A stretch of 64,000 nucleotides of DNA from an uncultured Thermodesulfobacteriota bacterium (GTDB taxonomy: Bacteria; Desulfobacterota; BSN033; WVXP01). The notes below the pieces were generated by a model. It saw only the letters and a program-made list of their open reading frames with translations. It was not told the DNA's origin and did not search any database. The position numbers and the translations under genes are program-made. The first letter of the stretch is position 1. Each line of letters starts with the position of its first letter. Where the stretch lies: the NCBI GenBank assembly GCA_964347335.1, contig CAYFYO010000005.1:1703-65702 (forward strand), read 5' to 3'. Of the stretch, positions 4,301-59,699 are shown piece by piece.

Positions 4301-5558
4301 TATTGAGGATCAAGAACGAGCACGGTTATTGAAGAATCAGTCTGATGAGATTCGGATCATTAATGAGAGCGCTCGACGAAAGATGGAAAGACTACTGCTG
4401 GGGAAAAAGCTGGCGGCGCCTTTGACGGAACACAAGAGGAAGACCGTTCTCTTAGAGGCTGGCAAGAAGATCACGGCCGAGGCCCTTAAGTCTATCCCCA
4501 CAACGAGGTTGGTTGATGTGCCGGTCAGTAACGAGATGGTCGAGCTGAGGCTTAGGGACATACTGGAAGGCGCTGAAGCTCAAATGGATCGAGTGAGGGA
4601 GAAATTTGAAGAGAAGATCGCTAAACTCCGGATGGGCGATGAACTTCCTCCTGGAGTGATTAAGACGGTCAAGGTCTATGTGGCCATCAAGCGGCACCTT
4701 TCAGTCGGCGACAAGATGTCCGGAAGGCACGGTAACAAAGGGATCATCTCGCGAATCCTACCAGAAGAGGATATGCCCTACACAGAGGATGGCACCCCCG
4801 TTGAGGTGGTCCTGAATCCTCTGGGTGTCCCCTCGAGAATGAATGTGGGGCAGATCCTGGAGACTCATCTGGGCTGGGCAGCCAAAGGACTGGGAGCGCA
4901 GATTCAGCGGTTCTTGGAGAGGAATTACAGTCCGACTTCCCTGAGAAAGCAGATCAAGTCCATTTATAAATCCAAGGACGTGGACAAATACGTCAATGGG
5001 TGTAGTGATAAGGAAATTGTTGAACTTGCGAAGAAGATAAGCCAGGGAGTCTATATGGCAGTCCCCGTCTTTGATGGCGCTTCGGAGCAAGAAATTAAAG
5101 AGACACTCGAGAAAGCCAACCTTCCGATTACTGGCCAGACAGCCCTTTATGACGGAAGGAATGGAGAGGCCTTTGATCATAAAGTGACCATCGGCTACAT
5201 GTATCTCCTGAAGCTGCACCATCTCGTGGACGAGAAGATCCATGCCAGGTCGATTGGTCCCTATTCGCTGGTCACACAGCAGCCTCTTGGCGGAAAGGCC
5301 CAATTCGGTGGACAGCGATTAGGAGAGATGGAAGTCTGGGCCCTCGAGGCCTATGGAGCAGCCCACTCTCTCCAGGAATTCCTGACCGTCAAATCCGACG
5401 ATGTGGGGGGGAGGACCAGGGCTTACGAGGCAATTGTTCGAGGCGAACACGTGCTGGAACCAGGATTACCGGAATCGTTCAATGTCCTCGTCAAAGAGCT
5501 TCAAAGCTTGGGCCTCGATGTGGAACTCCTTGAGGACAAAAGCACTCGTCGTCAATAA
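1386..5558 (+). CDS. rpoB: DNA-directed RNA polymerase beta subunit
   Basis: 1390 aa with hallmark beta motifs ([69 protein letters not shown]). Confidence 0.98.
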
Positions 5559-5599
5559 CAAGCTATCCATACCACAGAGGAAACAATAGGGAGGACGTT

Positions 5600-8500: not shown

Positions 8501-9730
8501 ATCGCTATACTCGATGAAGACAACCGGGAGAGACGTCGCTATTCGGTCATCTACGGGGCAAAGCTGAAAGTCAAAGATGGTCAAAAGATCAAAGAAGGAC
8601 AGATGCTTGCCGAATGGGATCCCTATTCGATTCCGATTTTGACAGAATTGCCGGGACGTGTGAAGTTCGGGGATATCATCGAAGGGGTCACGATGCAGGA
8701 AAAGGTCGATGACTTCACAGGTCTGTCGCGAAAGGTGATCATAGAACCGAAAGATTCGAATCTCCGCCCGAGGATTTCTATCAAAGACGACACAGGGAGG
8801 ACCCTTCAAATACCGGAATCGGCTTCAGCTGCCCGATACCTTCTTTCGGTCGGATCGAATATCCTCGTGGCAGAGGGAGACATGGTTGAGGCCGGTGATG
8901 TGCTCGTCAAAATCCCGAGAGAAACGACAAAAACAAAAGACATTACGGGCGGCCTGCCTCGTGTGGCGGAACTCTTCGAAGCACGCCGACCCAAGGAGTT
9001 TGCCGTTATCAGTGAGATCAATGGGACGGTCTCCTTTGGTAAAGATGTGAAAGGGAAGCGGAAGGTCATCATCACCCCCGAGGTGGGTGACCCTCGAGAA
9101 TACTCCTTCTCTCGGGACAAACATATCAGTGTCCATGAAGGAGATTATGTGAAGGCTGGGGAGCCCTTGATGGATGGACCTGCGAATCCCCACGATATCC
9201 TTCGGGTTCTGGGAGACAAAGAGTTGGCGAAGTACCTTGTCGATGAGATCCAAGAAGTCTATAAACTCCAGGGCGTCAGGATCAATGACAAGCACATCGA
9301 GGTTATCGTCCGCCAGATGCTGAAACGGGTCCGCATCAAAGAAGTTGGCGATACCAGCTTCCTGGTGGATGATCAGGTCGAGAAAACCGCCTTCGAAGAA
9401 GAAAATGCACGAGTCCTTGCCCAAGGGGGAAAGCCCGCGATCGCAGAGCCTTTGTTTCTGGGAATTACCAAGGCCTCGCTCATTACCGACAGTTTCATAT
9501 CGGCTGCCTCTTTCCAGGAAACCACCAAGGTTCTCACCCAGGCAGCTGTGGCTGCGAAGACTGATTTTCTCAGGGGCCTCAAAGAGAATGTGATCATGGG
9601 CCGTTTGATCCCAGCTGGCAGCGGCCTGGATAAATACACCGGTCTGAGAATCCACGTAGAAGGGTATGAACAAGAGGAACCGCAAGAACTCTATGGTGAG
9701 ACGGAAGAACTTCAGATAGCAGAGTCGTAG
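5600..9730 (+). CDS. rpoC: DNA-directed RNA polymerase beta' subunit
   Basis: 1376 aa with TTG start. Zn-finger [15 protein letters not shown], catalytic [12 protein letters not shown], and trigger-loop/bridge regions. Confidence 0.98.
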
Positions 9731-11578: not shown

Positions 11579-11594
11579 AAAGGGCTTAGAAAAA

Positions 11595-11901
11595 ATGAGT
11601 TGTGTCCAGGTGGTTCCTTCGGGAGCCGAAGAGGGAAGACGGTGGAAATCCGTCGCGGACCCGCCGCTGTGATCCCGCCTTCACCGATATGGTGAGGGGA
11701 AAACAGGAGCCTTTTCTCGACGGAACTACGGATCAAGGGTCGAAGCCACTGTCCCGCCTCAGCCGGGATGGGAAGGCGAACAGGAGAATCGGGAGAGCCA
11801 GAAGACCTGCCTGGACATGCTTCACAGTTGTCTCCGAGGGTGAGACAGTGAAGGGTCTTGTCGACTGATGATCCGGTTGCCCTCTGGGGACCGGTTTTTT
11901 T
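11595..11901 (+). promoter_or_regulatory. Cobalamin (B12) riboswitch with terminator expression platform
   Basis: Core AGAGGGAAGACGGTGGAAATCCGTCGCGGACCCGCCGCTGTGA, then B12 box AGCCACTG (about 11743-11751) followed by GGGAAGGC. It ends in an intrinsic terminator. The downstream genes are B12 uptake genes. Confidence 0.9.
11873..11901 (+). terminator. Intrinsic terminator (riboswitch OFF state)
   Basis: CCGGTTGCCCTCTGGGGACCGG followed by TTTTTTT, 14 nt before the exbB start. Confidence 0.8.
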
Positions 11902-11914
11902 GTTTGAGGATCTC

Positions 11915-12550
11915 ATGTTCAACTTGATCGCGAGGGGGGGACCGATTATGTATCCCCTTCTCCTGTGTTCTATCACGTCTGTTGCCATTGTCGTAGAGCG
12001 TGCAATTTTCTGGTTCCGCATGAGCCGCATAAGTGACAGGGGCCTTATTGTTCGGATACTCGAGCTTGCTGAGCAAGGCGCATACGATGTCGCCTATGAG
12101 GTTGGGAAGGGGTCGAAGGACTACATTGTCAGAATGCTGATCAATGGAATCGCCCATCGACACTACTCCCTGCCGCGAGCTCTTGAAATGAGTGCCGATG
12201 AGGCAATAAAAAGAATGCGGCGCTACCTGAACATCCTAGATACCATTATCACCGTGGCCCCTCTTCTGGGCATCTTTGGTACGGTCCTGGGTATCATCAA
12301 CTCATTCGACATCCTCGGGCTTGCTCAGATTGCCCAGCCCCAAGTGGTCACAAAAGGAATCGCACAGGCCTTGATCACCACTGCGGCAGGGTTGGCGGTC
12401 GCCATTGTTACCCTCATCCCTTACAACTACTTTCTGTCTCGAATTGACCATTTCTCGAAAGAGATGGAGAAATTCGCTAGCAGCCTTGAAATCACCTTTG
12501 AGAGAAACCAGAACCAGAAAGAGGGTTCCGGCCCTCAGGAGAGAATCTAG
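11915..12550 (+). CDS. exbB: MotA/TolQ/ExbB proton-channel protein
   Basis: The ATG at 11915 follows GAGGA and lies after the terminator; the track ORF start at 11858 lies inside the riboswitch. Three TM segments and the motif GIAQALITTAAGLAVAI. Confidence 0.85.
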   Translation: MFNLIARGGPIMYPLLLCSITSVAIVVERAIFWFRMSRISDRGLIVRILELAEQGAYDVAYEVGKGSKDYIVRMLINGIAHRHYSLPRALEMSADEAIKRMRRYLNILDTIITVAPLLGIFGTVLGIINSFDILGLAQIAQPQVVTKGIAQALITTAAGLAVAIVTLIPYNYFLSRIDHFSKEMEKFASSLEITFERNQNQKEGSGPQERI

Positions 12551-12552
12551 AG

Positions 12553-12966
12553 ATGCGACTCGCCCAGAGACCTCAAAAGCGCGCCCGAATCGAGATCATC
12601 CCTCTCATCGATTGTATGTTCCTTCTTCTGGTATTCTTTATCTATTCCATGCTCTCTATGACAGTCCACCGCGGCATTCAAGTGAATCTGCCTTCCGCTC
12701 AGACAGGACAGGCCGACAAACAGAACTATATCTCCGTCAGCATAACCGAGGATGAGAGGATATTTGTCAATGAGCGAGAGGTGTCTCTTACCCATCTCTT
12801 GGACCATCTCACGGGAGAAAGGAATAACGATCCTGACCAACCTGTTTTCATCAACGCTGACCAGGCCGTCCGTTATCAGATGATCATCGATGTTTTGGAT
12901 AGTGTCAGGGCTGCAGGACTGAGCAGAGTATCCCTGGCTACCCGAAGAAAGTCCGATGAATCGTAA
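12553..12966 (+). CDS. exbD: Biopolymer transport protein ExbD/TolR
   Basis: 137 aa. N-terminal IEIIPLIDCMFLLLVFF TM segment, then a periplasmic domain (FINADQAVRYQMIIDVLDSVRAAG). Confidence 0.85.
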   Translation: MRLAQRPQKRARIEIIPLIDCMFLLLVFFIYSMLSMTVHRGIQVNLPSAQTGQADKQNYISVSITEDERIFVNEREVSLTHLLDHLTGERNNDPDQPVFINADQAVRYQMIIDVLDSVRAAGLSRVSLATRRKSDES

Positions 12967-13753
12967 TATCCTTTTAGGCGTCATATGTTCCTTGGTGTTC
13001 CATGGCTCTCTTCTCTGGGTCGGATCCCATCTTCCCCGGGGTACGATCCCAGTCGGGTCTCAATCTGCGACACTTAATCTTTCAATTGTCACGCTCCATT
13101 CGGCACGCCAGGATTCAGCCGACTTGAGCTTTGAAGAAGAGACCCGCCGAAGGGTACCGGGGCCAAGGCCTTCTCCCCCCCACCCTCGCCCTGTATTTGC
13201 GGAAATAGAACCCATGTTGTCAAGGGAAGTCTCGGACGATAGGGTGAAAACGGTCCAACCGCTCGTCATGGCTTATGCGGTGGCCCAGGAAAAAAACGCC
13301 CTGGATCCCATACCAGACCCTCAACCGATCTGGAATGCGAGGGTGATCGTCAAGGACGCTCTTGGAAAGAGCGAACCGTCTTCAGGACAAGCCCTCAGCA
13401 TATCAAGAGGACCTTCAGACAAAGGAGAGGGTGCTTCTGGCACCGTCGGTGGGGACGCTCAGGTCATTGAGGCCGTCCCGGACTACGCCGTCAATCCGAG
13501 GCCCTTTTACCCGAGGCGGGCAGTTCTGAGAGGCCAGGAGGGAACGGTTACGCTCTTGGTTGAGGTTCTGCCTGATGGCTCTGCGGGGGAGGTGGATATT
13601 TTTGCATCGTCCGGCCATATCATCCTCGATCGTTCCGCCCTGAAAGCCGTCCGGAAGTGGCGCTTCAAGCCCGGAACAAAGATGGGAAAACCTCTAACCA
13701 TGAGAGTCAAGGTCCCAGTAGTCTATAGACTCCAGGGGGATTCGAATGGTTAA
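12956..13753 (+). CDS. tonB: TonB-family energy transducer
   Basis: N-terminal TM, Pro-rich spacer (PGPRPSPPHPRP), and C-terminal TonB domain (YPRRAVLRGQEGTVTLLVEVLPDGS..ALKAVRKWRFKPG). Confidence 0.85.
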   Translation: MNRNILLGVICSLVFHGSLLWVGSHLPRGTIPVGSQSATLNLSIVTLHSARQDSADLSFEEETRRRVPGPRPSPPHPRPVFAEIEPMLSREVSDDRVKTVQPLVMAYAVAQEKNALDPIPDPQPIWNARVIVKDALGKSEPSSGQALSISRGPSDKGEGASGTVGGDAQVIEAVPDYAVNPRPFYPRRAVLRGQEGTVTLLVEVLPDGSAGEVDIFASSGHIILDRSALKAVRKWRFKPGTKMGKPLTMRVKVPVVYRLQGDSNG

Positions 13754-14675
13754 GATCCATTCGCGATTCACGAGAATTGCCATCGGCCTCGCAGCCGTTC
13801 ATGCGATTTGTGGAGGTTTACGAGTCCCATCAGGTTTCGTTCATGGTGAGGAGCGTACCTTTAGGGACGCCATCGGGAGAAATGTCAGGATTCTCCACCC
13901 TCCAAAAAGGATTGTCTCTCTTGCGCCTGATATTACGGAAACCCTATTTGCGCTTGGCCTTGATCGCGAGATTGTCGGCGTCACCCGTTTCAGCAATTTT
14001 CCACCAGCTGCCAAAAAGAAACCCAAGGTCGGGTCCTATGTTGCGATCAACACGGAGGCAATCATCGATCTTCGACCTGATCTCGTTCTCGGTACTGCCG
14101 CGGGTAACTCGAGGCGCCAGGTTGAGAAGCTCTCCCGCATGAGCCTCGCCGTGTTTGTCGTCTATCCAAGAGACTTCTCCGACATTCTCGAAACGATTCA
14201 CCTCATTGGAGAGGTCGTTGGACGAGAAAAAAAGGCAAACCGTATTGTCAAACAGATGAACCTGAGAATAGAGAAAGTCCGCCAACGGATCAGAGAGCGA
14301 AAAAGGCCTCGGGTGTTTCTCCAGATTGGCAGGGACCCTATCTTCACGGTTTCGAAGGGGAGTTTTGCCGACGATCTCATTGCCATAGCTGGAGGCGAAA
14401 ACATTGCGAGGGATGAGAAAGTCCCCTATCCGAGCTACAACCTGGAGGAAGTTATCCTCAAGTCTCCAGACGTGATTATCATCAGTTCCATGTATACCGA
14501 CAGCGATCATTCTCGATGGCTTGATGACTGGAGGAAATGGACGGTCCTTCCTGCGGTAAAGAACAACAGGCTTTACGTTATTGATTCAGACTTAATCGAT
14601 CGTCCCTCTCCGAGGATCGTCGAGGGCCTGGAACAGATGGCCCGGATGATCCATCCCGGAGCTTTCAAAGAATAG
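13746..14675 (+). CDS. btuF: Periplasmic cobalamin/siderophore-type ABC substrate-binding protein
   Basis: 309 aa with a signal peptide. Type III binding-protein motifs (RIVSLAPDITETLFALGL..VVGVT, PDLVLG, PDVIIIS). It lies in the riboswitch-controlled operon. Confidence 0.75.
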   Translation: MVKIHSRFTRIAIGLAAVHAICGGLRVPSGFVHGEERTFRDAIGRNVRILHPPKRIVSLAPDITETLFALGLDREIVGVTRFSNFPPAAKKKPKVGSYVAINTEAIIDLRPDLVLGTAAGNSRRQVEKLSRMSLAVFVVYPRDFSDILETIHLIGEVVGREKKANRIVKQMNLRIEKVRQRIRERKRPRVFLQIGRDPIFTVSKGSFADDLIAIAGGENIARDEKVPYPSYNLEEVILKSPDVIIISSMYTDSDHSRWLDDWRKWTVLPAVKNNRLYVIDSDLIDRPSPRIVEGLEQMARMIHPGAFKE

Positions 14676-14734
14676 GATGTGAATAAATCTAATCGGTTGT
14701 CCACGGCAATTTTTCACGGGAGGACTTAGCTCGG

Positions 14735-15751
14735 GTGATTGCCACCTTCAGACGGTTTGTCGCTGTCAATCTGGTGCTACTATTCGTCCTATTGGCAGTC
14801 ATGTTGATCTGCCTTTCCTTCGGAACTGTCCGTATCGGGCTGGCCGAGGTGCTGCGGTCCCTCATCTGGGGAATAAAGGGGATAGGCCAAGAAGAAGGAC
14901 AGCGTCTTTCCACGATCATTCTTTCGATCCGACTTCCCAGAATTCTCTTGGCCGCCATCGTCGGAGGTGCTCTCTCCGTCGCGGGATCAATGTTTCAAGC
15001 CCTTTTGAGAAACCCACTGGCCGATCCTTACATTCTCGGTGTCTCAAGTGGTTCGGCCGTTGGTGCGGTGCTCGCTATGATGCTCGGACTCGCGGCAACC
15101 TCCCTCGGCCTCCCTCTCGCTTCCTTTGTCGGAGCGATTGGAACGGTGCTGATTGTTTTCAACGTGGGCAGAATGGGACGGAGAGTGCATACCAACACCC
15201 TCCTTTTGGCTGGGGTCATCATCAATGCTTTCTTCGGTGCAATTCTCATGTTTCTGATTTCTATTTCAAGGACCGAAGCGCTTCACAGCATCATTTTCTG
15301 GCTGATGGGTGACTTTAGTTTCGCCGATTACCGAAAGGTGGCTTTGGCCTTTCCATATATCTTTTCGGGAATAGTCCTGGCCTACTTTCTCGCGCGCCGG
15401 TTGAACTTGATTGTGGCGGGGGAAGACGAGGCCTTGCAACTCGGAGTTGACGTAGAAAGGGTCAAAAAATATGCCTATGCCTTGGCCTCTCTGGTCACCG
15501 CCGCGGCGGTTTCAGTGTGTGGGTTGATCGGGTTTGTGGGGCTCATGATTCCCCACATGATCCGGTTGATCTTGGGATCTGATCACAGACTCCTGATTCC
15601 TGCGACTGGTCTTTGGGGGGCAGCGTTTCTGGTGATTTGCGACACACTCGCTCGATCGATTCTGGCACCCATGGAACTGCCCGTTGGCGTGGTAACCGCA
15701 GCCTTCGGCGCCCCATTCTTCATCTATCTTCTCAAAACCAGAAGTATGTGA
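14735..15751 (+). CDS. btuC: FecCD/BtuC-family ABC permease
   Basis: 338 aa, polytopic. Motifs LRLPRILLAAIVGGALSVAGSMFQALLRNPLADPYILGVSSGSA and GVVTAAFGAPFFIYLL. Confidence 0.85.
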   Translation: MIATFRRFVAVNLVLLFVLLAVMLICLSFGTVRIGLAEVLRSLIWGIKGIGQEEGQRLSTIILSIRLPRILLAAIVGGALSVAGSMFQALLRNPLADPYILGVSSGSAVGAVLAMMLGLAATSLGLPLASFVGAIGTVLIVFNVGRMGRRVHTNTLLLAGVIINAFFGAILMFLISISRTEALHSIIFWLMGDFSFADYRKVALAFPYIFSGIVLAYFLARRLNLIVAGEDEALQLGVDVERVKKYAYALASLVTAAAVSVCGLIGFVGLMIPHMIRLILGSDHRLLIPATGLWGAAFLVICDTLARSILAPMELPVGVVTAAFGAPFFIYLLKTRSM

Positions 15752-15755
15752 CAAA

Positions 15756-15920
15756 AAAGACGGAATTCAGGATCCAGGAGTCAGAATTCAGAATTAAAGA
15801 CCAGGGAGCAGAGTTCGGGAGTCAGTCATCGGAATGAAAGACCAGGGGGCAGGGTTCAGGAGATAGTCGTCAGAATGAGAGCTGAACCTATGCTGACTTC
15901 TGACTCCTGACGACTGGTTT
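15756..15920. repeat. Composite intergenic repeat between btuC and btuD: three ~41-nt tandem units closed by a 17-nt inverted repeat
   Basis: Units at 15756-15795, 15796-15836 and 15837-15877; the last two differ at about 7 of 41 positions by eye. CAGGAGTCAGAATTCAG (15775-15791) is complementary to CTGACTTCTGACTCCTG (15893-15909) with one mismatch. AGTCGTCAG (15865-15873) pairs with CTGACGACT (15907-15915). Confidence 0.8.
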
Positions 15921-15923
15921 TTT

Positions 15924-16709
15924 ATGATTCAGACAGAAGACCTATCATTCCGCTACAATGGCGATTGGGTTCTGCGCAATCTCACCTTTGGCGTTGCGAA
16001 AGGTGACTTCCTGGGGATTGTCGGCCCGAATGGAACCGGCAAGACGACTCTCCTGAAACTGCTCTACCGGTTGATGTCTCCCCAGGAAGGTCGGGTTCTT
16101 ATCGACGGGAGAGATTTGGCCCAGATGACCCGGGGGGAGATATCGAAGAGGATTGCTGTGGTTTCCCAAGAAACCCAGATCAATTTCCCCTTCGTTGCCC
16201 TTGAGATTGTGTTGATGGGACGATCTCCCCATTTGAAGGGGCTTCAATTTGAGCGGAAGAGGGATTTCGAAATTGCCCAAAGAGCGATGGAGTTAACGGA
16301 CACGCTTCACGTTGCCCACAGACCCTTCAACGAACTCAGTGGCGGAGAAAAACAGATGGTTTTTATTGCCCGCGCTCTGGCTCAGGAGACCGATCTAATT
16401 CTCTTCGATGAACCTACGGCCAATCTCGACATTCGCCACCAAGTGCATTTCTATGATTTGATGACCACCCTCAATATCGAGAGGGAGATGACCGTGGTTA
16501 CGGTGAGCCATGATATCAACTTGGCCTCCGAATTCTGTAAGCGGATTCTTCTCCTCCATCAGGGCAGCCGATTCGCGCTCGGAAAACCTACCGAGATCAT
16601 CAGCAAGGCCAATATCGAAGCCATCTATCAGACACCGGTACTTGTCGATCAGAATCCCGAAACCACCGCTCCCAGAGTGACATTGCTCAGGAGGAGAAAG
16701 CCATCCTGA
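15924..16709 (+). CDS. btuD: ABC transporter ATP-binding protein (BtuD/FepC type)
   Basis: 261 aa. Walker A GPNGTGKTT, signature LSGGEKQ, Walker B LILFDEPTANLD, H-loop VSHD. Confidence 0.85.
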   Translation: MIQTEDLSFRYNGDWVLRNLTFGVAKGDFLGIVGPNGTGKTTLLKLLYRLMSPQEGRVLIDGRDLAQMTRGEISKRIAVVSQETQINFPFVALEIVLMGRSPHLKGLQFERKRDFEIAQRAMELTDTLHVAHRPFNELSGGEKQMVFIARALAQETDLILFDEPTANLDIRHQVHFYDLMTTLNIEREMTVVTVSHDINLASEFCKRILLLHQGSRFALGKPTEIISKANIEAIYQTPVLVDQNPETTAPRVTLLRRRKPS

Positions 16710-26773: not shown

Positions 26774-28084
26774 TCAACACCCCTCGCCTTTTTTCAGTCG
26801 TTTCGTTTTGCCCCTTTCGATCTTAAAATAGAGACGCTGACGACGGTGTCTGAGCGCGTTTCGTTCGAGCGGGTTGATAAACGCAACCGCCTCAAAAGCC
26901 TCCTCGACCCATCTCAACGCCTCTGAGTGGTCTTTCACCTGGTGCTCATAGAATTTTGCGAGCTCTTCATAGGGAAAAAGCTCGCGGCCCCTTTCGAGGG
27001 ATATCATTTCCATCCAGATTGAGGTTGCTCGCTCCATCTGTTTCTCTCTCTTCCTGGCCAAGGAGAGGGATTTCAAAATCTCCCACTCCCGAGCGTCTTT
27101 ACAGCATCGCAGAGCATTATGAAAACAATCGATAGCCTCCGCCCTCCTCCCCTGCCTGGCAAGGAGTTTTCCAATCGCATACGACTCAATCCATTCACGT
27201 CTCCCGTAGGTTTGAGGAGCGTCTACCAGGTCGTGGATTCTCGCTGCCAGAGTGACCAGTGAGAGAACGTCCATGCGGTTGTGATAGAAAACGCGAGGAA
27301 TCTCGCTCTCATTTCCGTTCCTCAGGTAGTCGAAATAGATGTAAGGAATCAGCTCACTTGGAACATCGTCTTCCCGATAGATGCCAAGGACAGATGACTC
27401 TATGGTCGCGAGTCGGCAGTCCTCGTAGGCTCCCCTCCATATCCTTCGCGAGGGAAAGAGCAGGTCGTAATTTGGCAGATCCCTAAACGGGCTATCCATG
27501 CGAGCGAGGATGAATCGATTTTCTAGGAGGGGAATGTCGAAACGCTTTCCGTTAAACGTAACGAGGAAGCGAAAATCTCTGACCAGTTCACTCAGCAACC
27601 AGAGCATTGCCCTTTCCTCCGTGAAATCTCGCAGAAAGAGTTGCTGAGTGACAAACCGGTTCCCCTCAAAGTACCCCACGCCGACCAGAAAGGCGCATGT
27701 TCCCGTTCCACCGGTCAAACCCGTTGTCTCCACATCGAGATACACGGTGCGAGAGAAATCGAGGTCTCTGAGATTCTCATCCTCCGAAAGCAGGGAGACC
27801 GGATACGTCGGGATCTCCATCACACGGTCGAGTAGCATCTCTCCATGCCGATGCCCGGATCCATAGATCTGTTGTCGCATGAACACCATTCCAAAGGGGG
27901 TGGCCACCTCCTCACCCTCCAGCCACTCCGTAGTCATGTGGGGTCGTTTATGGACACCTTTTTTTCGTTGGGGATCAACAAGCCGCTCAAGTCTTCTTCT
28001 CAAATCCGAGATAATCTCCTCACGGGACTGCTGCGCCCCACTTGAGATCGAATCCAGGCGCTTCAACCGCTCTTTGATGTCCAT
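26774..28084 (-). CDS. RNase H-fold exonuclease with C-terminal TPR-like region (YprB/MrfB-like)
   Basis: 436 aa. VYLDVETTGL..FLVGVGYF exonuclease I motif and YHNRMDVLSL. It lies directly downstream of the DUF1998 helicase, as in B. subtilis yprA-yprB. Confidence 0.7.
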   Translation of the reverse strand: MDIKERLKRLDSISSGAQQSREEIISDLRRRLERLVDPQRKKGVHKRPHMTTEWLEGEEVATPFGMVFMRQQIYGSGHRHGEMLLDRVMEIPTYPVSLLSEDENLRDLDFSRTVYLDVETTGLTGGTGTCAFLVGVGYFEGNRFVTQQLFLRDFTEERAMLWLLSELVRDFRFLVTFNGKRFDIPLLENRFILARMDSPFRDLPNYDLLFPSRRIWRGAYEDCRLATIESSVLGIYREDDVPSELIPYIYFDYLRNGNESEIPRVFYHNRMDVLSLVTLAARIHDLVDAPQTYGRREWIESYAIGKLLARQGRRAEAIDCFHNALRCCKDAREWEILKSLSLARKREKQMERATSIWMEMISLERGRELFPYEELAKFYEHQVKDHSEALRWVEEAFEAVAFINPLERNALRHRRQRLYFKIERGKTKRLKKGEGC

Positions 28085-28116
28085 AGTCCCCTAACCCGAG
28101 TCTCAGAATGCCGATA

Positions 28117-30522
28117 TCATTTTCCGCCTTTCAAAATCCGTTTCAACAGGGCGAGGGCCACCTCTTTGGAGTTCATACCGACCTCCTTTGTGGGACCAAC
28201 GCACGAGGGGCATCCGTGTGAACAGGGACATCTCGAGATGAGTCCGAGGGTATCTCGAAGCAGACCTTCATAATCATCGAAGATCTGAGGGCTAAAGCCA
28301 ACACCCCCCGGGTAGCTCTCATAGAGGAAGATTGTCGGCTCGAACTCCTTTATCACGTCTGGAGAGAGTCGATCCTCTCCGTCTGCAGACCGATAGAGCC
28401 CCTTACCCTCTCGCGATAGCCGCACAAACCATCGAGCACCCCTGTCGCCAACACTCCTTTGAATGTCTCGTAGATCACACATCAAGTGCAGACAGGCCAC
28501 TGCATGCAGCGCGTAGGAGACTCCGAGCACGCCGTCAATAATCTCCCAACGCGGGAGAGGAAGGCTGTCAAGGATCGCTTTTTGGAATACGAACCAGCAG
28601 GCCGTTGTATGCATTTCTTGATCGGGAAGGCTTACCTTCCCGTATCCGAGGTTTTCCAGAGTGCGAAATCGAATCTTCTTGAACCCGACCACTTTGCTGG
28701 TCACCTTTATCTCGCCGTGTTCAATAATGTAGGGATCCCTCCCGCGACTTTCGAATGTCTCCAAGATTTTGATGTCTGTATAAGTTAACGCCTCGGTATA
28801 ATGCTCTCCGTGGAACTTCTTCACATAGGCCTTGCGATGGTCGTAAGCAAGCTTTTCGACCTGGTACAGCTCAGATTCACACATATATACCGCTTCTGGA
28901 TAGAGGGTGGTGTGGGCGCCCACGAAGTCCACCTCGGCAATGACTCGATCAGCGGGCCGTCCCTTCTCACTCGTTGTGTCGATGACCAAGAAGTTCTCTT
29001 CAGAGATACTCCTCAGGCTGATTTCGTCTGCCGGATAGACATCCTGTGTCCAGTGCCATTGTCCTCCAGATCTGTGAAGGACGCCTTTTTCGCCGAGGAA
29101 TTCTAGGATCTGATCTAGATCCTCTCCACCGAATTTCTCCCCCTCCTGGAATGGAAGCTCAAAGGCAGCACACTTGATGTGGCTCAGGAGAATCAACAGA
29201 TTGTCGGGATTGACGAGACCGTGTTCTGGAGTTCTCCCGAAGAAATAATCGGGATGTTCCATAATAAACTGGTCCAGGGGAGTACTCCTTCCAATCAGAA
29301 CTGCCAGAGACTTACCGGACCGACGTCCTGCCCTTCCGGCCTGCTGCCACGTGCTTGCTATGGTCCCGGGATAGCCTGCGATAATACAGGCATTCAGCCA
29401 TCCAATGTCGACTCCAAGTTCCAGCGCGTTCGTGGAAACGACACCCAGAACCTTGCCCTCCCTCAGACCCTTCTCAATTTCTCTCCTCATGTTCGGGAGA
29501 TATCCTCCCCGATAGCCCCGAATCCGCTGACTCATATCACCGTCCTTCGCGAATCGGTCCTTTAGGTATTTTGTCAACACCTCCACATTCAACCGGCTCG
29601 TTGCAAAAATGATGGTCTGGACCTTTTCTTTCAGGAGCGGGCGGGAGAGTTTTTCAGCAACTTTGAGATGGTTTCCTCGAATCCCCAGCTCTTTGTTAAT
29701 CACTGGAGGATTGAAGAACACAAAGACCTTCTCTCCTGAAGGGGCACCACTCTTGGCAATCAAATCCATGGGTTTTTCGACAAGGCTCTCGGCGAGATCC
29801 TTCGGATTGGCAATTGTCGCGCTGCTACAGATGAACTGCGGTCTGGAGCCATAGAACGCGGAGATTCTGTCCAATCGCCGCATCACGTTGGCCATATGGG
29901 AGCCCAATACACCTCGGTAGAAATGGAGTTCGTCGAGAACAACATGCTTTAAATTCTGAAAAAAACCGGCCCATTTTGTATGATGAGGGAGTATCCCAGT
30001 GTGAAGCATGTCTGGATTCGTAATCACAATGTCTCCCTGTAGCCGAATGGCCCGACGGGCATCGTCGGGGGTATCACCGTCATATGTGTGAATCTTCATA
30101 GCCAGGGGCAGCTCAGCGAGAAACCCCTGGAGTTCGACCATCTGGTCCTGTGCCAAAGCCTTGGTAGGGAAAAGATAAAGAGAACGGGCCTCTGGATGCT
30201 CTATCTTGTAATTGAGGACCGGCAGGTTGTAGCACAGGGTTTTGCCTGAGGCCGTTGGGGTAACCACGACCACATCCTTGCCTGCATGGACGGCCTCAAC
30301 GGCCTCTTTCTGATGGGAATAGAGCCTCGAAATGCCCCTCTTTTTCAGAACTGAAACCAAGTCGTGATGGATGAAAGCGGGGTACTCTGCCCACTTCCCC
30401 CTGCGCATAGGGAGGACTTCCATGCGCATGATGCAGGGGGAGATCTCCTTTGATCGCTCCCATCGGTCCAGAACAAGATCGATGGCCATGGGATCGTGCG
30501 CTGGCTCTCTATCCTTCGTCAT
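28117..30522 (-). CDS. DEAD/DEAH-box helicase with C-terminal DUF1998 Cys cluster (YprA/MrfA-like)
   Basis: 801 aa. Motif I TPTASGKT, motif II VLDELH, SAT, QQAGRAGRR, and C-terminal CPCSHGCPSC. Confidence 0.85.
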   Translation of the reverse strand: MTKDREPAHDPMAIDLVLDRWERSKEISPCIMRMEVLPMRRGKWAEYPAFIHHDLVSVLKKRGISRLYSHQKEAVEAVHAGKDVVVVTPTASGKTLCYNLPVLNYKIEHPEARSLYLFPTKALAQDQMVELQGFLAELPLAMKIHTYDGDTPDDARRAIRLQGDIVITNPDMLHTGILPHHTKWAGFFQNLKHVVLDELHFYRGVLGSHMANVMRRLDRISAFYGSRPQFICSSATIANPKDLAESLVEKPMDLIAKSGAPSGEKVFVFFNPPVINKELGIRGNHLKVAEKLSRPLLKEKVQTIIFATSRLNVEVLTKYLKDRFAKDGDMSQRIRGYRGGYLPNMRREIEKGLREGKVLGVVSTNALELGVDIGWLNACIIAGYPGTIASTWQQAGRAGRRSGKSLAVLIGRSTPLDQFIMEHPDYFFGRTPEHGLVNPDNLLILLSHIKCAAFELPFQEGEKFGGEDLDQILEFLGEKGVLHRSGGQWHWTQDVYPADEISLRSISEENFLVIDTTSEKGRPADRVIAEVDFVGAHTTLYPEAVYMCESELYQVEKLAYDHRKAYVKKFHGEHYTEALTYTDIKILETFESRGRDPYIIEHGEIKVTSKVVGFKKIRFRTLENLGYGKVSLPDQEMHTTACWFVFQKAILDSLPLPRWEIIDGVLGVSYALHAVACLHLMCDLRDIQRSVGDRGARWFVRLSREGKGLYRSADGEDRLSPDVIKEFEPTIFLYESYPGGVGFSPQIFDDYEGLLRDTLGLISRCPCSHGCPSCVGPTKEVGMNSKEVALALLKRILKGGK

Positions 30523-32424: not shown

Positions 32425-33882
32425 TTAGCCTTTGATCACGCCGAGAGGCCGCAGTTTCACCACCATTTCGCTAATTCCGGCTCCATGAACAACCCGGACG
32501 ACATCATCCACGTCCTTATACGCTTCGGAAATCTCCTCGACAATCGTACTGCGGCCTGCCCCCCTGACATAGATGCCCTTGTCTTCGAGTTCTTTCGTAA
32601 TTTCACGGCCCCGTGCCACTTTCTTGGCCTGATGCCGACTCATCAGGCGCCCGGCGCCATGGCAGGTACTCCCAAAGGTCTCTTCATAGGCCTTCTGAGT
32701 CCCGACAAGAACATACGAGTATCTTCCCATGTCCCCGGGTATCAGAACCGGTTGCCCGATGCCACGGTAGTGCTCGGGAATGTCTGGATGGCCAGGGGGG
32801 AAGGCTCGAGTCGCCCCTTTTCGGTGAACACAGAGTTCGCGAGCTCTACCATCGATTGAGTGCGTTTCGATCTTTGCCATATTGTGGCAAACATCATACA
32901 CGAGATCTAATCGACAGCCTCGACCGAGGACCTTCTCGAAGGTCTCTCTCACCCAGTGAGTAATCATCTGACGGTTGGTAAAAGCGAAGTTTGCTGCCCC
33001 GGACATGGCGCCAAGGTATCTCTTGCCCTCCGGAGAGGCGACTGGGGCACAACAGAGCTGTCTGTCTGGCAGCTCGATGTCGTACTTCCTTGCTGCCTGA
33101 AGCATGAGCCGGATGTGATCGTCACACACCTGGTGGCCCAGGCCTCTCGACCCCGTATGAACGATGACGGTTATCTGATCCTGCTCCAAGCCAAGAATCC
33201 CGGCCTTCTCAGGAGAGAAAACCTCTTCGACATATCCGACTTCGACAAAGTGGTTCCCCGATCCAAGGGTTCCGAGTTGGGCCCTCCCACGGTCCATAGC
33301 TTTTTTGGAGATCTCGTCTGGATCTGCTCTCGGAATACACCCGCGTTCCTCGATGTACTCGAGATCCGTTGCCGTTCCAAACCCCCGTTCCACAGCCCAT
33401 CGGGCCCCCAGAACGAGTACCTTCCGCTCCTCGGCTTGACTCAGTTTGAGATCTTTGCGGCTCGACCCAACCCCCGATGGGATGTTGATAAAGAGCCGGT
33501 CAACGAGGCCCCTGATCCTTCCCTCCAGCTCTTTGCGCATCAGACCTGAGCGCATGAGTCGGACGCCTCAGTTGATATCGTAGCCGACTCCACCTGGAGA
33601 GACAATCCCCGTTTCTGTATTGAAAGCAGCCACGCCCCCGATTGGAAAGCCGTATCCCCAGTGTATATCGGGCATTGCCATTGAGGGCCCCACAATCCCC
33701 GGAAGCCAAGCCACATTAGCCACCTGGTTCAGGCTCTGATCTTTCCTTATGGAATCCATCATTTTTTCGTCAGCATAGACGACGCCGTGGGTCCGCATCC
33801 TTCCCTCCCGGGGGATACGCCATGTGTATTCAGTCGCCTTCTGAACCTTTATGTCAGCCATAGCAAAGGTCTCCTTTTCCAA
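32425..33882 (-). CDS. rtcB: RNA ligase RtcB, read through an in-frame TGA (33568-33570) as candidate selenocysteine
   Basis: Two same-frame ORFs (104 aa and 376 aa) are separated only by the TGA: ..GGVGYDIN-[TGA]-GVRLMR.. RtcB has Cys at this position. Downstream motifs are [15 protein letters not shown] and STCHGAGR. The total of 485 codons matches RtcB length. Confidence 0.8.
33529..33558 (-). promoter_or_regulatory. Candidate bacterial SECIS hairpin
   Basis: mRNA CUCAUGCGCUCAGGUCUGAUGCGCAAAGAG starts 10 nt after the UGA. Pairs are GCGC/GCGC and UCA/UGA, with an unpaired U and a GGUC tetraloop. The apex CAGGUCUG matches the E. coli fdhF SECIS apex as I recall it. Confidence 0.65.
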
Positions 33883-33965
33883 TGGGCAACCGACCCTTGG
33901 AATTGTCTGCTTTGATTCACCGCCCGCTTCGCTCGAGGCACAGAGATCGCAGAGAACTTAATCTC

Positions 33966-34298
33966 TTTGATTTGCCGAGAGACGGCGGCAAATCAAAACT
34001 ATCACTCCGCCGGAATGGGACAAAACATATTCATCGCATTGGCCAGAAACACGGTAATCCTGTGACTCAGTGCTTCTATTCATAGACAAAGTGACGTATT
34101 CCTTCTGGAATGTTTCACTCCAGAGGCACCGAGGGTCTTTTCTTTTTGCCCATCGGGAGACGACGATGGGCAAAAAAACACTGCCCTCCAGAACGAGGAT
34201 AGGTGCAACACGGTTGACCGTGGCCTAACCAATGGTATACCCCTTGCCCGATAGGGCTGATGATTTTCGTTTGCCGTCCTCTACCGGCAAACGAAAAA
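33966..34298. repeat. Three related long hairpins in the archease-rtcB spacer
   Basis: 33968-33995 is TGATTTGCCG/8 nt/CGGCAAATCA. 34143-34176 is TTTTTGCCCATCG/8 nt/CGATGGGCAAAAA. 34265-34298 is TTTTCGTTTGCCG/8 nt/CGGCAAACGAAAA. All have T-run/stem/8-nt loop/A-run architecture, and the loops are pyrimidine-rich (CGTCTC / CCTCT) on one strand. Confidence 0.7.
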
Positions 34299-34587
34299 AG
34301 AACTTCATCTCCGGGTACTCTGTGTCTCTGTGGTAAACATAAATTTTGCCGTCAATCGTTAATGACAGGAAGAAAATTAAGTCACCATCAGGATGAAGCC
34401 ATGTACTCAGATACTCCCGAAGGGACCTTTTTTCCTTCTGCCCTCTGAGCAGAACGGAAAAGAGTCAAGAAACTCAGCGTCCTCCGTGTCTCGAACGCGT
34501 ATGGCGGGTGAGCGGTGAGTCCCCCCGAAAGCTGGACTGCCGATGAGATGCAAACAAGAGAATGTCCTCTGTGATATCTCTCCAGCA

Positions 34588-35004
34588 TCAAAGATCTAGG
34601 ACTACCCTGGCTCGCCATCGGCCTCGCTGCTGTTTCACCTCGAGCTGGTGGAAGGTCACGGCCTTAACCCCGGTGCGGATTATATGTTGTCCCTCATTGA
34701 AAAAATCGCCCCACGCCCTAGCCTTGAAATTTTTGTCTGTAAGGCTTTTCACCTGGAACCGTCGAAAGAGGAGTCCCTCAACATCATGGAAATAGAGAAG
34801 TTCGCCCAACCAATCCACCATCAGAGTAGCCAGGTCACTGTAGGTCAGGGCAATCTCCTTCTCGACCCGTTCGTCCACAACCGACGGATCGGTAATCACG
34901 TGGAAGAGCGCTCGACCAGCGTTCTCAAAGAGATCCTTGAGGTCCTGCCCAAAAACCTCCATGGCGAGATCACCCGTGTGGTCGAGAAACCTGAACCGCC
35001 TCAT
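34588..35004 (-). CDS. Archease (RtcB activator)
   Basis: MRRFRFLDHTGDLAMEVFG.. and C-terminal VKAVTFHQLEV are typical of archease. An alternative start lies at 35025. Confidence 0.8.
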   Translation of the reverse strand: MRRFRFLDHTGDLAMEVFGQDLKDLFENAGRALFHVITDPSVVDERVEKEIALTYSDLATLMVDWLGELLYFHDVEGLLFRRFQVKSLTDKNFKARAWGDFFNEGQHIIRTGVKAVTFHQLEVKQQRGRWRARVVLDL

Positions 35005-35464
35005 CCATCCTAACCCCTTACCCATTCATGATCGGCTCCACTCTCGAATCCCCCGAATCAACAGGGTTCTTCAATCAATGGTATTACAAAACTGAGCAAA
35101 AAGCCATTGCGTCGGTCCGTCCCCCAACGATCCCCTTCTGGACATCGTCCAGCCACTATGCTATGCAAAGAATGAGAATCCCACACAAGTGTTTTTCTGA
35201 CTGTGGTCAATCCGAACCTCTGTTGAAGCGCTCAACTCGCATTCTGGGTTGGAATACGCACTTACCACAGAGACACGGAACGCTTCGTGGGTTGAGGTTT
35301 GGGAACTGCTTTGCTGTGGGGTTGAGGGGGGGGATTGTTCCAACTCCGGCCTCGGCGCCCGCAGGACTACTCCTTCAACCTGAAGCTTAGGAACGGCATA
35401 TGCTCCAGGGTGAATTCACGCGACTGTGGGGACCAGGGAGATTTCCGTCAGAAAGGAGCTGGGA

Positions 35465-54468: not shown

Positions 54469-56604
54469 TCATCGATTCGCGTCCACCGTAAGTCTGTCAT
54501 TTTGCTCGTTCGCCAGTGTTCTCCTTGTCCGGGAATGGGATCTTCGATCGACATAATCGAGGTTTCGGATTCTCAGGGCACCATTTTCCCTGAAAAGGAT
54601 CCAGTGGATCACACCCCTCCAAACTCTCTTTTTCCCTCCTTTTTCCAATGTCTGATCGACTTCATAACGGGCTCTGACTTTCACACCATTTTGATAGAAT
54701 CTGAATCTCACATCTTCCAAGTGAAGTGCGAGTTCCTGACTCTGGTCGAAGAAATTCCGATAAGTCCTTTCAATTTCTTCGAACCTATTCGTCCAATTTT
54801 GGACGGCCGCAGAAGAGAACATGGAGAGGAAGCCTTCTACGTCCTTCTGGTTGTATCGCTCGGTATAATGAGCCAAGAACTGCTTGACCTCTTCCTCTTC
54901 GGCTTTCACATGGTCTGGATTCACCTTTCCCATATCTTTCAATAACCCTTCTTCCAGTTTTTCCAAGGATTCTTCCTCCCCTTCGTTTAAAGTCTCCGCC
55001 TCGGGGGTTATTGTCCGGCTTTCGATCCCACGATTTGCAAGCTCCAGGCTCTCGAGAAAGTAATTAGCTTCCCTCTTGTCAGATTTTCTTTTGTCTAACC
55101 TTTTCTTCGGCCCCCCAGTTTCCCCCACTGCCCCAGAGATCTCCTTATCACTCCGGTCCGGCTCATCAGGCCCGGCGCCGGGCTTCGGTCTCTCGCCTCG
55201 AGCGATCTCTTTCGGGAGAGCATTAACCGCTTTCATTCTCTCAAGAGAAACCGTTTTCTCTTTATCCTTTCTTTTGACCGCCGGCAGGGTGTCCTCCTCC
55301 TTCTTCTGATCCTGCTGAGGCCTGCTGAGTTCCTTGGAAGTAATCCGACTTCCCTTCTTCGCCTGTCTCGGAATTTCGATCCGGATTTTTGACCTCTCTT
55401 TCTCCTCCGGAGCCTGGAAAGTTTCTATTTTTTCGGGTCTTCCGTTCAATCCCCATTCAAAACCCCGATACGGGCTTGCCTTGGTCTCCACAGGATCTCG
55501 CGGTATTTCAGCCTTCACGGCAAGCACTGGCTCGTCAAACACCTCCTCCACTGTCATCTCTCGCTTAGGCCACCTCGAATCGCGAGCCTCAGTTCTAGAT
55601 TTTCTGTCAGAAACTGCTTGTAGGTTTTTGTTTGGCTGTAATAGAGCCTGATGTCTCTTTCCCTCCCCCCAAAGATAGAGAAGAACTCCGGCTACAAATA
55701 AGCCAATGAAGAGAATTAGCGCTGAGGCGGGAACAGGCAAATGCCTCTCAAAGAAATCTTGCGCCATTGTCCTTCGGGTTTTGCGTCTCTCAGGGACCTT
55801 TTCGAGTCTAAGATCGGTAACGCACTCTCGGACGATCCTCGCATCAATGAGCGGCTTGTCCCTTGTATAGCCGGCGAGAAGCGAATTATGACAGAGATTG
55901 TTGATCAATCTTGGAACACCGAGTGAATGCTGATAAATCTTTTCAATCGCACCTCTGGTAAAACAGTTCAGGGAATTGGCCCCGGCTATCCTCATTCTCG
56001 TTTGGATATACTCCTCTGTTTCCTTTCGATCCAACGGAACTAAGTGATACCTCGTGCTTATTCGCTGTTTAAGCCTCCACAATTCCGTCTGCTCGAAGCG
56101 GTCAACAAGTTCGGGCTGTCCCACCAATACGATCTGGAGAAGTTTCTGCCTCGAGGTCTCGAGATTGGTCAGTGTCCTTATTTCTTCAAATAAGGCAGCA
56201 TCGAGATGCTGCGCTTCATCGACAATGAGGGTGCAGGTCTCTCCAGCATGATACGACTCCATCAGAAAACCATGGAGCTTCATCCGGTAATCCTCTTCCG
56301 ATTTCCCCTCGGCCTGAATACCAAAATCATGACAGGCATACTTGAGAAAACCTGCAACCGGTAGCTTCGGATTGAACATATAAGAAACCTGAAAGCTCTT
56401 ATCTAGACGCTCAATCAGCGCTCTGACAATCGTCGTCTTTCCGGTCCCCACATCGCCTGATAGCACAGCCAAGCCATGTCGAAACTTGACCGCATAAATA
56501 AGTCGAGTCAATGCCTCTCGATGTTTCCTGCCTAAATAAAGAAACCTAGGGTCGGGCGTATTCCTGAAGGGCTGTTCCCTGAATCTGAAGAAAGACTCGT
56601 ACAT
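54469..56604 (-). CDS. ExeA/GspA-like AAA ATPase - TM - K/E/P-rich linker - NTF2/SnoaL-like domain
   Basis: 711 aa. The N-terminus F.F.E.PF..TPDPRFLY.....EAL..L, GDVGTGKTT and LIVDEAQHL is ExeA-like. TM is ALILFIGLFVAGVLLYLW. The C-terminal roughly 120 aa (FLAHYTERYNQKDVEGFLSMFS..) is NTF2-like. Confidence 0.75.
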   Translation of the reverse strand: MYESFFRFREQPFRNTPDPRFLYLGRKHREALTRLIYAVKFRHGLAVLSGDVGTGKTTIVRALIERLDKSFQVSYMFNPKLPVAGFLKYACHDFGIQAEGKSEEDYRMKLHGFLMESYHAGETCTLIVDEAQHLDAALFEEIRTLTNLETSRQKLLQIVLVGQPELVDRFEQTELWRLKQRISTRYHLVPLDRKETEEYIQTRMRIAGANSLNCFTRGAIEKIYQHSLGVPRLINNLCHNSLLAGYTRDKPLIDARIVRECVTDLRLEKVPERRKTRRTMAQDFFERHLPVPASALILFIGLFVAGVLLYLWGEGKRHQALLQPNKNLQAVSDRKSRTEARDSRWPKREMTVEEVFDEPVLAVKAEIPRDPVETKASPYRGFEWGLNGRPEKIETFQAPEEKERSKIRIEIPRQAKKGSRITSKELSRPQQDQKKEEDTLPAVKRKDKEKTVSLERMKAVNALPKEIARGERPKPGAGPDEPDRSDKEISGAVGETGGPKKRLDKRKSDKREANYFLESLELANRGIESRTITPEAETLNEGEEESLEKLEEGLLKDMGKVNPDHVKAEEEEVKQFLAHYTERYNQKDVEGFLSMFSSAAVQNWTNRFEEIERTYRNFFDQSQELALHLEDVRFRFYQNGVKVRARYEVDQTLEKGGKKRVWRGVIHWILFRENGALRIRNLDYVDRRSHSRTRRTLANEQNDRLTVDANR

Positions 56605-56839
56605 TGCTCCATCACCGTGGCTGGCCGTTTGCCTCGAGGGTTTGCTCCGATCGTCCCTAGCTTTTGCTGAGGTTGTCCTGCTTATTGATCGCAGAGAACA
56701 TGCATGACTCGCTTGTCAGAAACGGAGTTACCCTCTGCGACGGCCCTTGATTGACGGAAGCAAAGAATCCACTTTCCCAGCAACATGTCTCGCGCTGGGC
56801 CGAGGAGGTAATTTGTTCGTATCTCTGATTTGTGAATTG

Positions 56840-56855
56840 TGCAATGCCGATGCCA
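56840..56855 (-). promoter_or_regulatory. Candidate sigma-54 promoter upstream of the ExeA-like gene
   Basis: Minus strand reads TGGCATCGGCATTGCA, i.e. TGGCAT-N5-TTGCA with exact spacing. It lies about 235 nt upstream of the ATG at 56604. Confidence 0.6.
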
Positions 56856-57191
56856 GTATTAATTTGATCGTTAAGCGACTGGGATTAAACGGCTTTCTCA
56901 GAGAACGGGAGTTTTTCTCCAAAGCCAAATGGAAAGGTTTTTCACAGAAGTTCCAAAATTGCGTCCAGAAATGAATCAGGACTTCACAGGGTCATGAATC
57001 TTTTTGATATCCCAGCGGATCTGGATCGAGGGCGAGTGAGGATCAAGAACCGGGTCAGCGATTGCCGTGGATGGCCGATGTCGGAGGGAAGATTATTCTC
57101 GGAGAAAAGGCATTTGAGGATTCTGTCGAAGCCTTAAGAATCGACCGATTCCAGATCGATGTGGATTGTATGCGACCCCAGGAGATTTCTG

Positions 57192-59426: not shown

Positions 59427-59699
59427 GATGCCGCCCAATCGTTTTATCTATCTGCCCTTCCGTTCATTGTGTGCCGGTTATCGGAACGACAGAATCCTCA
59501 GACACCGATTCATCGAAGAATTCTACCACCGGGGTTTCCCTAAAGAAAGGGGCTCGAGAGAGGAGTCCTCCCATTCCGCAGGGAACTCCTGTCCTTTCGT
59601 CCCCAAGCTCACGCGATCATCCGAACGGGATTCGCAGATTCTGCTCTCCCAGGACGAGGGAGAAAGGCAAAAGGTTCAAGGAGACGCACACCTTATGAG

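Follow-up and report, generated by a model that had tools for sequence, protein, structure and literature searches.

A candidate selenocysteine-containing RtcB RNA ligase encoded by TGA-interrupted rtcB genes of Thermodesulfobacteriota and other bacteria

RtcB ligases and the rtcB gene of the window

RtcB joins RNA 3'-phosphate and 5'-OH ends, and in the enzyme of Pyrococcus horikoshii (PhoRtcB) the metal ion M1 is bound by Cys98, His234 and His329, and M2 by Cys98, Asp95 and His203 (PMC9745838). Cys98 therefore bridges two Mn2+ ions, and the C98A replacement abolishes every ligation step (PMC9745838). The subject of this work is an rtcB gene in which the codon for this residue is UGA. It is located in a stretch of 64,000 nucleotides (nt) from an uncultured Thermodesulfobacteriota bacterium (contig CAYFYO010000005.1 of assembly GCA_964347335.1), which is called the window hereafter. 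Its product resembles the Cys-type RtcBs (P. horikoshii PH1602/RtcB, Thermus thermophilus TTHA1785, Escherichia coli RtcB and human RTCB) in full-length homology, metal ligands, histidine nucleophile and the presence of archease, and differs from them at residue 98, which is encoded by UGA and not by TGY (TGC or TGT). If this UGA is decoded as selenocysteine (Sec), a selenolate would bridge M1 and M2. To our knowledge, no characterised RtcB has Sec at residue 98.

Judging from comparative sequence data, the locus very probably encodes one full-length RtcB 3'-phosphate/5'-OH RNA ligase with Sec at residue 98, which would represent a genuine and uncatalogued selenoprotein family. This reading is based on the position of the UGA, exactly at the Cys98 codon, together with a conserved hairpin, purifying selection on both halves of the gene and the interchange of Cys and UGA.

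Other proteins in which Sec takes the place of a metal-ligand Cys, such as the [NiFeSe] hydrogenases, also form Sec/Cys pairs with the chalcogen on an active-site metal, and the benefit proposed for them is the protection of the site from irreversible over-oxidation (PMC13188914). RtcB differs from these enzymes in its fold, its binuclear Mn site and its reaction, the ligation of RNA via His-GMP (guanosine monophosphate). The same residue has been swapped to Sec in P. horikoshii RtcB by engineering, with a UAG/EF-Tu system (PMC4150793). However, this Sec98 protein is artificial, independent of any selenocysteine insertion sequence (SECIS), unstable and cleaved near residue 98, whereas the TGA-rtcB genes are natural, SECIS-linked and evolutionarily maintained.

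Regarding earlier records, full-text searches turned up no natural Sec-containing RtcB, the engineering paper being the sole overlap (PMC4150793), and RtcB is missing from the 119 prokaryotic selenoprotein families and subfamilies, annotation-only families included, of a 2026 review (PMC13188914). That review mentions unvalidated "novel candidates" from a survey of groundwater metagenome-assembled genomes (MAGs), the supplement of which could already list a Sec-RtcB. RtcB is not mentioned in the main text of the BSepDB paper, and NCBIfam release 20 holds no Sec-specific RtcB model. The recoding system and the enzyme family are each standard, and it is their widespread combination that appears to be unrecorded.

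The first-pass annotation of the window, made from the sequence alone, had noted that the open reading frames (ORFs) 33568..33882 and 32425..33555 share one frame with only the TGA at 33570-33568 between them. This was reproduced, and the junction reads GGVGYDIN-[UGA]-GVRLMR. The features of the gene and of its partner are the following:

32425..33861, minus strand: complete rtcB coding sequence with the UGA read through, 478 residues plus the TAA stop at 32427-32425
33871..33875, minus strand: AGGAG resembling a Shine-Dalgarno sequence, 9 nt before the ATG at 33861
33571..33861, minus strand: N-terminal 97 codons of rtcB, including Asp95, formerly callable just as a separate 104-codon ORF
33568..33570, minus strand: in-frame UGA at residue 98, where P. 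horikoshii RtcB has its Mn-bridging Cys98, and proposed codon for selenocysteine
32428..33567, minus strand: C-terminal 380 codons of rtcB, with His204, His235, His326 and His401
34588..35025, minus strand: archease, the RtcB activation partner, upstream of rtcB (Pfam PF01951, E 1.3e-40, full length)

The ATG at 33861 is the more likely start, compared with the TTG at 33882 of the mechanical ORF call, since it is preceded by AGGAG at the distance given and yields 478 codons, the length of the closest full-length relative (P0001). Other TGA-rtcB genes likewise have, 96-98 codons before the TGA, an ATG with a GGAGG-type motif. The fused product matches Pfam PF01139 over residues 46-478, covering profile positions 1-426 of 426 (E 2.9e-175), and its matches in the PDB include the T. 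thermophilus structure 2epg (E 1.8e-180) and the P. horikoshii structures 1uc2/4dwq (E 4e-171).

In the residue alignment to PhoRtcB, the UGA falls on Cys98, in agreement with the annotation, which had placed it at a metal-ligand cysteine. Moreover, the remaining ligands are kept, the window residues Asp95, His204, His235 and His326 corresponding to Asp95, His203, His234 and His329 of PhoRtcB, and His401 corresponds to the guanylylated His404. The binuclear metal-ligand set of RtcB is thus complete in the window product, provided that the UGA is decoded as Sec or Cys at position 98. With the archease match, this bears out the earlier remark that the other RtcB motifs and the archease are intact.

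The NCBIfam model for intein-containing RtcB matches the window protein in two pieces, with the break exactly at residue 97/98. In P. horikoshii RtcB, Cys98 is the intein splice junction (PMC4150793). Considering both observations, RtcB residue 98 would be the place where inteins insert in archaea and where Sec is incorporated in bacteria.

The order HhH-GPD gene, archease and rtcB is also present in a relative of the Cys type (locus L404). The spacer between archease and rtcB (33883-34587) measures 705 bp in the window and just 229 bp in that relative. Within the window spacer are three inverted repeats that resemble one another and are based on TTTGCC...GGCAAA (34300-34262, 34175-34140 and 34000-33963). 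The additional length might represent an inserted repeat element, or terminators or attenuators.

TGA-rtcB genes in other genomes

A first set of sequences consisted of the 79 genome loci with the highest similarity to the C-terminal part of the window RtcB. Ten independent MAGs in this set have TGA at exactly the same codon, with 66-86% amino-acid identity to the window, and the remaining loci with a readable motif have TGC or TGT there. Hence, TGA and TGY alternate among orthologues at this column, as the first-pass annotation had proposed to check. A second set came from a search with a degenerate 29-nt pattern for G-Y-D-I-N-TGA-G-V-R-L in one genome per species, which gave at least 120 matches, with about 0.1 expected by chance according to our own calculation. 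When both sets are pooled and the window is counted, at least 128 distinct TGA-rtcB genes from independent assemblies are found, so the TGA is not unique to this assembly, a possibility considered in the annotation. The pattern scan recovered only 3 of the 10 TGA loci of the first, independent set, and the true number of carriers is therefore probably a few hundred species, as a rough extrapolation.

Among the matches listed, the hosts belong to many orders of Thermodesulfobacteriota, to Nitrospirota, to Acidobacteriota and to Binatia. They include a RefSeq record of Ca. Magnetobacterium casense (Nitrospirota) and a complete chromosome of Vicinamibacterales (Acidobacteriota). Further carriers are single bins of Gemmatimonadales, Eisenbacteria, Polyangiaceae and Planctomycetota. 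The closest rtcB relatives of the window come from two MAGs of uncultured Thermodesulfobacteriota (L001 and L011), and between the window and L001 the tetranucleotide correlation is 0.93.

The ORF following the TGA has 378-383 codons wherever the locus permits among the matches listed, with the exception of L117, L143 and L145, where it is shortened to 133, 86 and 324 codons, respectively. These three may be decaying copies or assembly errors. When the window was compared with its closest TGA relatives (L001 and L011), the ratio of nonsynonymous to synonymous substitution rates (dN/dS) was 0.04-0.05 over 90 codons before the TGA and 0.04-0.07 over the 380 codons that follow, and dS exceeded 1. 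Both halves of rtcB are under strong purifying selection.

These data bear on the simplest alternative, which is that the gene is dead or mis-assembled and the TGA is a nonsense mutation or a sequencing error. TGY to TGA is the sole one-step route from a Cys codon to a stop. In favour of it, gene callers do split or truncate the gene, and the downstream ORF is shortened at the three loci named above. Nevertheless, the same TGA is present in at least 128 independent assemblies with intact downstream ORFs, dN/dS is 0.04-0.08 on either side of the TGA with dS saturated, all the catalytic residues are retained, and an RNA element is selected in TGA genes only, as described below. The probability left to this explanation is close to nil, and it can be considered effectively refuted. 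The first-pass annotation had argued against a decaying pseudogene, and the low dN/dS on both sides of the TGA and the open downstream ORFs point the same way.

It could also be considered that translation stops at UGA98 and restarts at a nearby Met, giving a two-piece RtcB or just a 376-aa C-terminal protein. There is an ATG five codons after the UGA in the window, and public gene calls at TGA-rtcB loci begin at an internal Met and hold proteins of 371-376 aa (the truncated calls P0002, P0008 and P0086). However, that codon is ATG in 37 of the 128 genes listed, and most of the others have CTG, CTC, CTT, ATC, GTC or other non-starts. Furthermore, either piece would be without residue 98, the loss of which abolishes all ligation steps (PMC9745838), and a restart explains neither the coincidence with the Cys codon nor the interchange of TGY and TGA. 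A restart is accordingly regarded as very improbable, and decoding of the UGA as Sec is preferred.

The distribution of the two states was also followed on a neighbour-joining tree of the C-terminal sequences, with 98 Sec-type and 58 Cys-type proteins, on which parsimony requires about 7 state changes. A pattern of gain and loss has been described for other Sec/Cys families, and the changes in RtcB fit it. In the protein database, the full-length relative closest to the window RtcB (P0001, encoded at L404:2054-3490, with 81% identity) has TGT, that is Cys, at the site, and despite this its gene keeps an intact hairpin of the type found in the window (UGCGCUCAGGUUUGAUGCGCA). This looks like a recent replacement of Sec by Cys and suggests that both residues are interchangeable at position 98 of RtcB.

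The hairpin downstream of the UGA

The annotation had also pointed out a possible hairpin 10 nt after the UGA, and it is present in the window mRNA, which can fold as CUC-A-UGCGCUCA-[GGUC]-UGA-(U)-GCGCA-AA-GAG. Its parts are the following:

33529..33558, minus strand: SECIS-like hairpin, starting 10 nt after the UGA
33554-33534, minus strand: upper stem UGCGCUCA/UGA-(U)-GCGCA, with the lower stem CUC/GAG
33546-33543, minus strand: apical loop GGUC, with the unpaired U at 33539

The closest described element is that of E. coli fdhF (taken from NC_000913.3), which also has an in-frame UGA at a metal-ligand position and a hairpin within the coding sequence just downstream. The apex 8-mer CAGGUCUG is identical in both, including the A-U/C-G pairs that close the loop, and the loop GGUC lies in the same codon phase (GGU CUG). 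However, CAGGUCUG begins at nt 23 in the window, counted from the U of the UGA, and at nt 20 in fdhF, so the rtcB loop is 3 nt, or one codon, further away. In addition, the unpaired base of rtcB is found on the 3' side and is not conserved, the relatives having U, C, A or no base there, whereas U17 of fdhF is on the 5' side. Of the likeness to fdhF that had been proposed for apex, unpaired U and distance, the apex therefore stands, and neither the U nor the distance does. Judged by its sequence, the window hairpin departs from a strict fdhF-type SECIS in its distance and its bulge strand, and it is better described as fdhF-like than as a strict copy. The proteins differ as well, since RtcB is a non-redox nucleotidyl transferase with Mn2+ and the fdhF product is an oxidoreductase with Mo.

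Two types of hairpin were distinguished among the TGA genes. Type 1 is found in 96-97 genes, including that of the window, and has a stem of 7-9 bp, in most cases with a single unpaired base in the 3' strand. Its loop (GGUC, GGUU, GGUCU or CGUGUU) starts about 14 nt past the UGA. Type 2 is found in 30 Nitrospirota genes (L089-L198, e.g. L104 and L147) and is quite different from the fdhF element, with a stem of about 16 bp, CUCAGGAGCAACCUC-N9-GAGGUUGCUCCGAGG, and a 9-nt A-rich loop. The hairpin type dictates the protein segment encoded there (RSGLSR, RSVLSV, KTGLVF or RSNL..EV.P), whereas Cys-type genes are free at this place.

A hairpin of at least 6 bp is present at the conserved place in 96 of 97 type-1 TGA genes, with a mean core free energy of -10.1 kcal/mol, and, under a loose criterion, in 34 of 62 Cys genes, with a mean of -5.1 kcal/mol (Fisher p = 7e-13). 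The minimum free energy of the segment +7..+57 is also lower in Sec genes than in Cys genes (-16.1 versus -12.2, p = 2e-6), as is the mean z of the comparison with synonymous recodings (-1.2 versus -0.3, p = 0.001).

The covariation that the first-pass annotation had suggested looking for was found in both types. In type 2, 85% of the cells are paired, and there are 19 double-sided changes against 4.0 expected, with pair counts such as CG:19, GC:7 and UA:2 as an example. In type 1, tested in one fixed register, 77.8% are paired, and there are 32 double-sided changes against 9.3 expected. None of 500 shuffles reached the score in either case. Moreover, RNAalifold recovered the type-2 stem independently, with 5 compensatory pairs.

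The most telling measure of the RNA element is the normalised synonymous-codon entropy. In type 1 it falls to 0.15-0.56 (mean 0.42) over codons +6 to +11, compared with 0.85 upstream and 0.90 further downstream, and the depression in type 2 spans codons +4 to +17. In contrast, it stays high in Cys genes (0.90, with a range of 0.83-0.96). The RNA element downstream of the site is under selection, and this is so in TGA genes only.

Probable selenocysteine insertion and the possible role of residue 98

According to the standard bacterial mechanism, SelB with guanosine triphosphate and Sec-tRNA(Sec) would bind the apex of the hairpin and deliver Sec at the UGA. The selenolate would then replace the thiolate as a ligand of both metals, of M1 together with His235 and His326 and of M2 together with Asp95 and His204. 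The ligase cycle with archease would otherwise be the usual one, in which His401 is guanylylated, GMP is passed to the RNA 3'-phosphate and the 5'-OH then attacks.

The presence of the Sec machinery was looked for in related genomes by a SelA scan, seeded with a Thermodesulfobacteriota SelA that was chosen by tetranucleotide similarity and came from Desulfobaccales and not from the predicted clade. Two of the 80 loci obtained are in MAGs that also carry TGA-rtcB. In CAZFIR01 (isolate SRP185410_co1_332), contig 96 carries SelA (L370) and contig 59 carries TGA-rtcB (L120), and in DATIGG01 (isolate SMAG_U16415), contig 41 carries SelA (L396) and contig 427 carries TGA-rtcB (L084). Both SelA ORFs are complete, match the Pfam SelA family with E 3e-164 and 8e-164, respectively, and are 48-49% identical to E. 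coli SelA. The RtcBs of these MAGs are immediate neighbours of the window RtcB in the neighbour-joining tree. This finding is supportive of Sec insertion but not proof of it, and it concerns the genomes of relatives and not that of the window. The replacement of a metal-binding Cys by Sec in an RNA ligase, as put forward in the first-pass annotation, is thereby supported by comparative tests, namely the alternation at the column, the hairpin, the selection and SelA in two MAGs.

Several results weigh against this interpretation. The energy of the window hairpin, which the annotation had suggested folding, is not significant on its own, either against dinucleotide shuffles (z -1.45) or against protein-preserving synonymous recodings (z +0.13). 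The window hairpin alone being statistically unremarkable, the verdict has to rest on the comparison with other genomes. As the bulge and the loop register slide between subclades, RNAalifold did not arrive at one consensus for the type-1 sequences when pooled, and type 1 was tested by the per-sequence and per-column measures given above instead. The 64-kb window has no selA, selB or selD and no tRNA gene of any kind, a tblastn search with E. coli SelA, SelB and SelD found nothing in the window and all the rtcB loci, and ARAGORN detected no tRNA-Sec in the window and about 1.3 Mb of rtcB flanks. The link to SelA in CAZFIR01 and DATIGG01 rests on a search for SelA alone and on MAG binning, and bins can mix organisms. 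Finally, the engineered Sec98 protein of P. horikoshii undergoes spontaneous peptide cleavage (PMC4150793), so the change to Sec is not automatically tolerated.

With no Sec machinery in the window, it could be proposed that the UGA is read through by a near-cognate tRNA that inserts Trp, Cys or Arg, the hairpin being a general stimulator of read-through. In other systems, read-through can be promoted by a hairpin that follows the stop codon. Nevertheless, the residue usually inserted at UGA in bacteria is Trp, with which the metal site would be lost, and an inefficient and error-prone route is hard to square with the upkeep of the gene across phyla. Furthermore, the apex CAGGUCUG equals the SelB-binding apex of fdhF, SelA is present in the two MAGs with close TGA-rtcB relatives, and the lineages involved are the most selenoprotein-rich bacteria (PMC13326102). 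Read-through of this kind is hence an unlikely explanation, to which a small probability is given, and Sec insertion is still preferred.

A reassignment of UGA in the genetic code was considered too and rejected. TGA is an ordinary stop in the window, where it ends 15 of 34 Pfam-supported genes, which rules out a reassigned code.

Two Nitrospirota contigs (L321:3001-6471 and L322:3001-6401) have adjacent selA and selB downstream of genes for RNase R and a metallophosphoesterase. ARAGORN found no tRNA-Sec within or beside selB in them, and the SelA-SelB operons seen through a Nitrospirota SelA protein search and on these two contigs could not be linked to any TGA-rtcB MAG. The tRNA-Sec sequences from the SelA loci were too phylum-specific for designing a targeted scan. 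Further selenoproteins were looked for in the TGA-rtcB flanks by comparing 2,659 in-frame TGAs with 9,536 ORFs in a BLAST for Sec/Cys pairs, which returned rtcB everywhere and otherwise shadow-frame artefacts, and a motif filter for the same purpose was far too noisy. A candidate selenoprotein gene in L088 was rejected, since it is an antisense ORF.

As for the reason why Sec would be kept at this position, the oxidation of the bridging residue may be relevant. In one PhoRtcB crystal, Cys98 had been oxidised to sulfonic acid (PMC9745838), and human RTCB is inactivated by metal-induced oxidation of its active-site cysteine unless PYROXD1 protects it (PMC9745838, PMC12263435). The resistance of selenium to permanent oxidation is the rationale proposed for Sec-metal enzymes (PMC13188914). 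It could be speculated that a selenolate bridging ligand resists irreversible oxidation or metal-induced inactivation, and that this is the selective benefit. If the UGA does encode Sec, the same weakness of the bridging cysteine would be met by Sec here and by the oxidoreductase PYROXD1 in metazoan RTCB.

On a wider and clearly more tentative level, it is possible, though doubtful as a whole, that Sec-RtcB is a genuine, widespread and uncatalogued family of some hundreds of mostly anaerobic species (a rough extrapolation) in at least 5 phyla, that it is the first selenoenzyme in RNA repair or ligation and the first case of selenium bridging a binuclear Mn2+ centre, and that selection has favoured Sec for its resistance to the irreversible oxidation or metal-induced inactivation that the bridging cysteine suffers. 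If so, a non-redox nucleic-acid enzyme would join a selenoproteome dominated by thiol-oxidoreductase-like proteins, and a selenolate bridging two Mn2+ ions would be a new type of Sec-metal site. For RtcB enzymology, in which the active-site cysteine is easily oxidised (PMC9745838, PMC12263435), these genes would be a natural experiment. Sec and Cys orthologues exist at 81-86% identity, some of them differing at the site only by TGA versus TGT with the same hairpin, which makes the hypothesis of oxidation resistance directly testable. Moreover, TGA-rtcB genes are called as truncated or split, and neither NCBIfam nor the latest family lists include them, so the selenoproteome counts of Thermodesulfobacteriota, Nitrospirota and Acidobacteriota would be underestimates. 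The two unrelated hairpin architectures at one homologous site could also serve as training cases for bacterial SECIS models.

Regarding the rest of the window, the region 11591-16709 holds a cobalamin riboswitch (Rfam RF00174, 88.9 bits) directly followed by genes for ExbB, TonB, a periplasmic binding protein, a FecCD permease and an ABC ATPase, and it is likely a B12 uptake operon. Two gene pairs on the minus strand, one encoding an RNase H-like/TPR protein and a DEAD-box helicase with an MrfA Zn-binding domain (26774-30522) and the other a family B DNA polymerase beside an AAA_22 ATPase (54469-59438), could be repair, defence or mobile-element modules. The plus strand carries an MttB-family (trimethylamine methyltransferase-like) gene at 60082-61512, and rpoB and rpoC at 1386-9730.

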